Part shown: one piece after another, positions 3,062 through 3,782 of the stretch
Layout: each line of letters opens with the position of its first letter
Numbering within the stretch: the first letter of the stretch is position 1
Virus record (IMG/VR): IMGVR_UViG_2548877009_000008
Direction: 5' to 3' (one strand)
Length of the DNA stretch: 7,621 nt
From: a virus
Lineage: Duplodnaviria; Heunggongvirae; Uroviricota; Caudoviricetes
Translations under genes and position numbers: made by a program
Notes under the pieces: generated by a model
Told to the model about the DNA's origin: nothing
What the model saw: the letters and a program-made list of their open reading frames with translations, nothing else
The model's database searches: none

Positions 3062-3782
3062 ATGAAAAACATTACGTCAGGTGGTGTTCTGGCAAGAGTC
3101 AGCAGATTTGTGCCGCAGGATGCAATCCCTCCGTACCGTACGGTGGCGGAGTGGCGGGAATGGCAGCTTGCTGAAGGGCGTAAGCGAAGCGAGGAGGTTA
3201 ATCGTCTGAATCATCAGACGCGGGTTGAAAAAATCATTAACCGCTCCGGTATCCAGCCGCTTCACCGGAAGTGTACGTTCGGTAACTACCGGGTGCAGAA
3301 CGATGGTCAGCGCCATGCCCTGAGTCAGGCGAAATCCATTGCGGCAGAGCTGGAAGGCGGCTGTACGAATTTTGTTTTCAGTGGCAGGCCTGGCGGCGGC
3401 TATTGGCAACCACCTTCTGGCGAAAGGTCGCAGTGTGATTGTGATAACAGTGGCGGATGTGATGCTGGCGTTACATGGCAGCTACGACAACAAAAACTCG
3501 GGCGAAAAATTTTTGCAGGGATTGTGTGGCGTTGACCTGCTGGTACTGGATGAAATTGGCATGCAACGGGATACGCGTAATGAGCAGGTCACGCTGAATC
3601 AGATTGTTGACCGCAGAACGGCATCGTTACTCAGTGTGGGGATGCTGACAAATCTTAACCATGCAGCGATGAATACACTTCTCGGCGAGCGGGTGATGGA
3701 CCGCATGTCCATGAACGGCGGTCGCTGGGTGACGTTTAACTGGGAGAGCTGGCGTCCGAACGTCAGCCAGCACAGGAACTGA
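3062..3782 (+). pseudogene. DnaC-like helicase loader (IstB-type AAA+), apparently disrupted by a frameshifting deletion in the Walker A motif
   Basis: Two overlapping ORFs in different frames (3062..3535 and 3339..3782) together cover a DnaC-like protein. The N-terminal part matches DnaC up to FVFSGRPG; the second frame resumes at LAAAIGNHLLAKGRSVIVITVADV and carries Walker B DLLVLDEIG. The P-loop residues between them (about TGKNH) are missing and the frame changes near 3390-3395. Confidence 0.7.

Follow-up and report, generated by a model that had tools for sequence, protein, structure and literature searches.

DnaC-type helicase loaders are known from the Escherichia coli chromosome (DnaC), from the Rac prophage (YdaV), from Gifsy-1 and Gifsy-2, and from Shigella phage 75/02 Stx and POCJ13. 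The ATPase motifs of DnaC are required for normal function, and a change of its Walker A lysine (K112R) alone abolishes ATPase activity; the isolated helicase-binding domain (residues 1 to 75) loads DnaB onto single-stranded DNA at approximately 50% of the wild-type level and also stimulates unwinding in vitro (PMC8213410). In EHEC prophage pools, defective lambdoid prophages are excised, replicated, and packaged with the help of others through interprophage complementation (Asadulghani et al. 2009, PMC2669165).

The stretch of 7,621 nt analyzed here (referred to as the window) spans contig AJMB01000101.1 of E. coli NCCP15647 from end to end; this strain was isolated in Korea from a case of haemolytic-uraemic syndrome. 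Positions 3062 to 3782 of the window correspond to a DnaC-family helicase-loader gene of a lambdoid prophage that is split by an exact 20-nt deletion. Taken as a whole, the locus is very probably explained by a real, heritable, single 20-bp repeat-mediated deletion that abolished an ATP-binding loader.

The loader gene, its lesion, and its neighborhood

The ORF listing and direct reading of the sequence revealed two overlapping plus-strand ORFs in different frames (3062..3535, 157 aa; 3339..3782, 147 aa with a TTG start). The first reads MKN...TNFVFSGRPG and then continues into unrelated sequence, while the second is native from LAAAIGNHLL on through DLLVLDEIG to the stop codon. The two halves fall at consecutive positions (1 to 113 and 117 to 245 of 248) of one model, NCBIfam PRK12377 ("ATP-binding protein"). 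Their scores (200.6 and 243.3 bits) are below the cutoff of 389 bits, so that the window copy offers no single ORF above the family cutoff, whereas the intact allele scores 474.8 bits. Both halves also matched the DnaC model, more weakly.

Family membership was judged at the level of the loader subfamily (NCBIfam NF009043/PHROG 50), and the intact protein belongs to phrog_50 ("DnaC-like helicase loader"). It aligned over its full length with E. coli DnaC in PDB entries 6QEL and 6QEM (6QEL, E = 1e-71) and was 48% identical to K-12 DnaC. Because the intact allele scored below the cutoff of the DnaC equivalog (NCBIfam NF005931; 303.2 versus 357 bits), sequence comparison identifies the intact loader as a prophage paralog of DnaC and not as the chromosomal DnaC. 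The second half of the gene also had a weak Pfam match to IstB_IS21 (PF01695; 33.7 bits). An identity as the IS21 IstB helper ATPase was rejected, given the score for NCBIfam IS21_help_AAA (68.8 against a cutoff of 200) and the neighbors, which are phage replication genes with no transposase.

Nucleotide alignment with two intact prophage genes from complete E. coli genomes defined the lesion as a single gap of exactly 20 nt. The missing nucleotides are ACAGGAAAAAACCACCTGGC, or the same stretch in an equivalent register, and the gap is bounded by a direct repeat (CCTGGC...CCTGGC; copies 14 bp apart). Intact genes read AGG-CCTGGC-ACAGGAAAAAACCA-CCTGGC-GGCGGC at this site and encode 246 aa containing FSGRPGTGKNHLAAAIGN. 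Residues 112 to 116 (TGKNH, including the Walker A lysine) and five further nucleotides have been lost, thus shifting the frame. The Walker A loop reads GRPGTGKNH in the intact gene; only GRPG remains in the window, which lacks the GxxGxGK pattern of a P-loop. Outside the gap, 720 of the 721 positions are identical to those of E. coli RM10042, the sole difference being synonymous (GGT/GGC), and no substitution separates the gene from those of the sister prophages on contigs L006, L009, and L010.

From its start codon, the gene encodes 111 native residues followed by 46 nonsense residues, the latter including four cysteines. These 111 native residues align with DnaC from residue 1 and thus include the helicase-binding domain. 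Walker B, sensor I, and the arginine finger all survive unmutated in the DNA, although the start codon now sets a different reading frame (Table 1). Programmed frameshifting or transcriptional slippage that would restore the protein was ruled out because the TGKNH codons are physically absent.

An earlier note on this DNA had described a loader that is DnaC-like on both sides of a break, with Walker B retained and the P-loop lost through a short frame-shifting deletion, and all of these points were borne out by the model matches and the alignment with intact homologs that the note had called for. Its estimate of approximately 14 to 17 nt for the deletion was too small. The possibility it raised that homologs naturally lack the P-loop residues was ruled out, given that the PGTGKNHLAAAIGN block is conserved in every intact relative that we aligned, including E. 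coli DnaC, Rac YdaV, and the loaders of Gifsy-2 and Stx phage 75/02. The description that suits the locus best is a very young pseudogene of a DnaC-like prophage loader, broken by a frameshift.

Table 1. Positions of the loader gene, its remnants, and the neighboring replication genes in the window
Feature	Position	Strand	Description
CI/LexA-type repressor	672..1316	-	HTH_3 + Peptidase_S24
cro	1415-1642	rightward operon	After the repressor
YdaT	1639-2064	rightward operon	Before the initiator and loader
O-like replication initiator	2087..3055	+	Directly upstream of the loader; 322 aa; HTH_36; phrog_391 "replication initiation O-like," E = 5e-107
Iteron-like array inside the initiator gene	2413..2511	.	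15-nt period; approximately 5 to 6 copies; TTGACCCGTCAA-type units
Native 5' part of the loader	3062..3394	+	Codons 1-111, MKN...FVFSGRPG; from alignment
Region aligning with the E. coli DnaC helicase-binding domain (residues 1-75)	loader codons 1 to ~77	+	Domain boundary from PMC8213410
Deletion junction, single remaining CCTGGC copy	3389..3394	+	From alignment with intact alleles
Native 3' part of the loader	3390..3782	+	Codons 117-246 (from L117) and stop; rest of the AAA+ domain, in the other frame
Out-of-frame tail	3395..3535	+	46 nonsense codons, GGYWQPPSGERSQC...IVWR; TGA stop at 3533-3535
Walker B LLVLDEIG	3537..3560	+	DNA intact; out of frame with the start codon
Sensor I region GMLTN (= DnaC N203)	3639..3653	+	DNA intact; motif assignment from PMC8213410
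GERVMDR, arginine coupler and arginine finger (= DnaC R216 and R220)	3684..3704	+	DNA intact; assignment from PMC8213410
DUF1627 (YdaW-like) gene	3812..4582	+	After the loader in all relatives; holds the SNP at window 3979, g to t

The gene order is CI-type repressor, cro, YdaT, initiator, loader, DUF1627, and Ren-like, of which the part from cro to DUF1627 is also present in phage 75/02 Stx and in Rac. The window contains the features of a lambdoid replication module, namely, an O-like initiator upstream of the loader, an iteron array within it, and an operon on the cro side. On the basis of this gene content, the surroundings are assigned to the replication region of a Rac/Stx-phage-type lambdoid prophage. 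The initiator protein is identical in the deletion-bearing and the intact sister prophages. The iteron-like array, the presumed origin of the prophage, consists of partly palindromic units that encode a repeated peptide, DPS(N/T)(I/V/F)DPS; its placement within the initiator gene is as in lambda-type origins inside the O gene.

The initiator ends in a sequence, QRCVNHISEPDTEIPPGFRG (residues 303 to 322; window 2996 to 3055), that is identical at 14 of 20 positions to the extreme C terminus of E. coli DnaT (pairwise E = 1e-7), and two PHROG families match the initiator solely in this DnaT-like tail. Both K-12 dnaT and the prophage initiator gene lie immediately upstream of a DnaC-family gene. 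Brezellec et al. (2017, PMC5509034) noted a DnaT C-terminal motif in DopC, which is also O-like. A possible role of the tail is to link the upstream protein with the loader or the helicase, and its presence fits a phage origin of dnaTC. Farther downstream, the window contains a hok/sok type I toxin-antitoxin locus (6690 to 7014), with an Rfam sok match (RF01794; 113.8 bits; 6690 to 6864, plus strand) and a Hok/Gef toxin ORF that ends at 7014 (called as 70 aa with a start at 6802 and, in some assemblies, as 51 aa).

Occurrence and inheritance of the deletion allele

The same junction was present in seven assemblies, that is, the window contig, four other NCBI genomes (GCA_045004895.2, GCA_016115225.1, GCA_004661615.1, and GCA_031061235.1), and two Logan assemblies. 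The NCBI carriers are 99.97 to 100% identical to the window over 7.6 kb. Two unrelated runs (SRR23867118 and SRR25835410) yielded Logan assemblies that encode the exact 157-aa product, and across the junction both of these contigs match the window at 100% identity. The Logan contigs (L004 and L005) stop at the same base (window 3841), 30 nt into the DUF1627 gene; the assembly graph may branch there because those genomes hold a second, similar prophage module containing DUF1627.

The four NCBI carriers and the sister prophages were identified through contigs encoding exactly the same initiator protein. Three intact sisters (GCA_006237535.1, GCA_037433765.2, and GCA_002467985.1) contain the 20 nt and differ from the window by three or four SNPs. 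The prophage is located next to ompW; on the long contigs, it adjoins tonB-yciABC-ompW, and the integrase, the excisionase, and an 823-aa exonuclease are intact. In GCA_006237535.1 (contig L006, 4763 to 7219), this YdfE-like exonuclease was called as three fragments associated with N runs and rearranged sequence, probably reflecting a scaffolding gap problem rather than a real lesion.

In a 15.7-kb alignment, two SNPs cosegregated perfectly with the deletion (positions 5719 and 11893 of contig L007, the latter corresponding to window 3979). Both were present in all four long deletion-bearing contigs and in none of the three intact sisters. Given this cosegregation, the deletion is most simply regarded as a heritable allele with a single recent origin in a prophage lineage, although the evidence for a single origin is limited to two cosegregating SNPs and the chromosomal flank haplotype of one carrier, L011, differs. 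The carriers form a small clade of surveillance and clinical isolates of Shiga-toxin-type E. coli, within which L011 differs from the others by three prophage SNPs and a 7-nt indel.

A megablast search detected the loader gene in 279 of 5,426 complete E. coli genomes. The deletion was present in none of these 279 genomes; each match exceeded the query by 17 to 20 nt, and identity stayed below 99% throughout. The exact junction had no match in the GTDB representative genomes (one genome per species) or the JGI metagenomes. The phage collection yielded no megablast match, and relatives there surfaced in a protein-level search.

The chromosomal flank of L011 (1 to 3307) is 100% identical to that of isolate 07-4299 and at most 99.7% identical to that of any other complete genome, whereas the flank of the other carriers (e.g., L007, 1 to 3300) matches a different group of STEC genomes at 99.9%. 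At its own ompW site, isolate 07-4299 (NZ_CP027462.1) carries a mosaic relative of the prophage whose loader is intact and whose immunity region differs. This mosaic relative, together with the two tonB-ompW flank haplotypes found beside the deletion module, indicates that the ompW attachment site hosts recombining lambdoid prophages. Lysogeny and recombination between resident prophages are both possible routes by which the deletion module reached its second background; the flank available for comparison is 3.3 kb. We did not retain the L011 flank as evidence that the damaged prophage still spreads, because the mosaic relative at ompW means that recombination explains the flank equally well.

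Origin of the deletion and its consequences

A deletion that is flanked by a perfect 6-bp direct repeat and leaves one copy behind is a textbook hallmark of slipped-strand mispairing or of deletion through microhomology. We propose that one 20-bp deletion occurred between the two CCTGGC copies in the DnaC-type loader gene of the NCCP15647 lambdoid prophage, most likely by slipped-strand mispairing during replication or by an equivalent microhomology-mediated event. The loss of codons 112 to 116 and the frameshift would leave a product consisting of the helicase-binding domain, the first AAA+ strand, and the nonsense tail, with the remaining AAA+ motifs retained in the DNA but untranslated from the loader start. 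The event probably took place once and recently, in a lineage whose closest relatives are intact, and the allele has since been passed on within a small clade.

The sequence shows that no ATP-binding loader can be made from this gene any longer: the P-loop lysine has lost its codon, and the AAA+ core is not read in the frame of the start codon. The 157-aa product has probably lost its function completely, but some residual or altered activity is conceivable, because it retains the region whose DnaC counterpart loads DnaB by itself in vitro. After induction, the prophage would have no ATP-dependent loader of its own with which to place DnaB at the iteron origin occupied by the initiator. All of the other visible genes are intact in the carriers, from int to the Q antiterminator, over approximately 12 kb of the element, in which only two substitutions have been fixed since the deletion. 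Given such a recent lesion, no decay of neighboring genes would be expected yet, and the survival of the initiator and the iterons needs no special explanation. The earlier note had suggested a defective replication module in a cryptic prophage, or an initiator and iterons kept for another reason; the sequence speaks neither for nor against these suggestions.

The gene may be dead and the prophage not crippled, if the loader of a coresident prophage or the host DnaC substitutes in trans. EHEC genomes contain many lambdoid prophages whose defective members are rescued by interprophage complementation, and two copies of the loader family occur in some complete genomes. The common end point of the two Logan contigs would fit a second similar module, and the deletion allele is found beside two different chromosomal flank haplotypes. 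However, no second loader was seen in the deletion-bearing genomes, of which single contigs were available, and the flank difference is equally explained by recombination among the mosaic relatives at ompW. We consider such complementation a possible but unlikely state of affairs.

The different flank of L011 would also be compatible with a deletion that arose several times at a slippage hotspot and not from one ancestor. The site combines the 6-bp repeat pair with an adjacent (GGC)3 run, and the prophage gene of strain 155 (contig L002, approximately 4330 to 4340; window 3395 to 3403) has independently lost one GGC in frame from this run, changing LAAAIG to LAAIG. The GGC loss beside the junction indicates that the 30-bp patch around it is slippage prone. 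Each copy of the CCTGGC repeat also contains a CCWGG (Dcm) site. Recurrence is nonetheless quite improbable, in view of the two SNPs that are common to the four long deletion-bearing contigs and absent from the three intact sisters. Moreover, the 279 complete genomes possess the same repeat pair without the deletion, and thus the event is not frequent. A single ancestral deletion remains our preferred explanation.

The rarity of the allele among these genomes also argues against a change of function, in which the 157-aa product would still be active as an ATP-independent helicase-binding factor, either a weak loader or a DnaB-titrating inhibitor. This idea draws on the native residues 1 to 111, which span the whole region aligning with the DnaC helicase-binding domain, and on the DnaB-loading activity of that domain in isolation. 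If true, it could help to explain the presence of the allele in two chromosomal flank haplotypes, and the fragment would be a natural counterpart of in vitro DnaB loading by the helicase-binding domain alone. However, a partial AAA+ strand followed by a 46-residue nonsense tail with four cysteines is likely to be misfolded or degraded, the prophage operon containing the gene is repressed, and the lesion bears the signature of random slippage with no sign of selection. It is therefore very doubtful that, once the prophage is induced, the natural truncation serves as a minimal helicase operator independent of ATP or titrates DnaB; loss of the loader is favored.

The earlier note had offered a sequencing or assembly error as the alternative, and the window is indeed a short contig of a 2012 draft assembly in a G+C-rich region, but this is effectively excluded by the identical junction in seven assemblies from different projects and assemblers, the recovery of the intact sequence in short-read assemblies of near-identical sisters, the cosegregation of the gap with SNPs, a 6-bp repeat far shorter than any assembler k-mer, and a gap length (20 nt) that is not a typical platform indel.

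Comparison with known systems

The gene family is known, and both the type of lesion and the setting (an EHEC lambdoid prophage) are common; the locus represents ordinary recent prophage decay. It should be annotated as a frameshifted DnaC-like loader pseudogene and not as two hypothetical ORFs, and it has little import beyond annotation. The junction and the two linked SNPs provide a convenient marker for a small E. coli clade that includes the HUS isolate NCCP15647, and the allele cleanly illustrates a natural deletion between short direct repeats.

The nearest counterparts are the intact alleles of the same gene, which differ from the window in having the 20 nt that encode TGKNH and a single 246-aa ORF. 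The allele of E. coli RM10042 (WP_000790459.1, "ATP-binding protein") has the same neighbors as the window copy, and those of the three intact sisters, which are identical outside the gap, share both the neighbors and the ompW site. Among deposited phage genomes, the closest loaders are gp16 of Shigella phage 75/02 Stx (NC_029120) and that of POCJ13 (82.8% protein identity). In phage 75/02 Stx, the module is arranged likewise (O-like DNA-binding protein, loader, DUF1627, and Ren-like); in contrast to the window, this is a complete deposited phage genome with an intact P-loop and a different immunity region. Rac YdaV is 76.5% identical, and the ydaS/T-ydaU-ydaV-ydaW synteny is common to both elements, but YdaV is intact (248 aa) and Rac is integrated elsewhere. 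The Gifsy-1 and Gifsy-2 loaders are more distant (56.5% identity to the intact prophage loader).

The homology with E. coli DnaC extends along the whole protein and takes in the helicase-binding domain, both Walker motifs (A and B), sensor I, and the arginine finger; DnaC differs in being the host chromosomal loader, and the window copy lacks Walker A. With regard to the type of defect, the closest parallel is provided by the defective genes of the EHEC prophage pool (Asadulghani et al. 2009, PMC2669165), where, as here, replication genes of lambdoid prophages in EHEC-type strains have suffered small lesions. Compared with those defects, the lesion in the window is single and very recent, is described here at the sequence level, and lies in a visible region that is otherwise intact.
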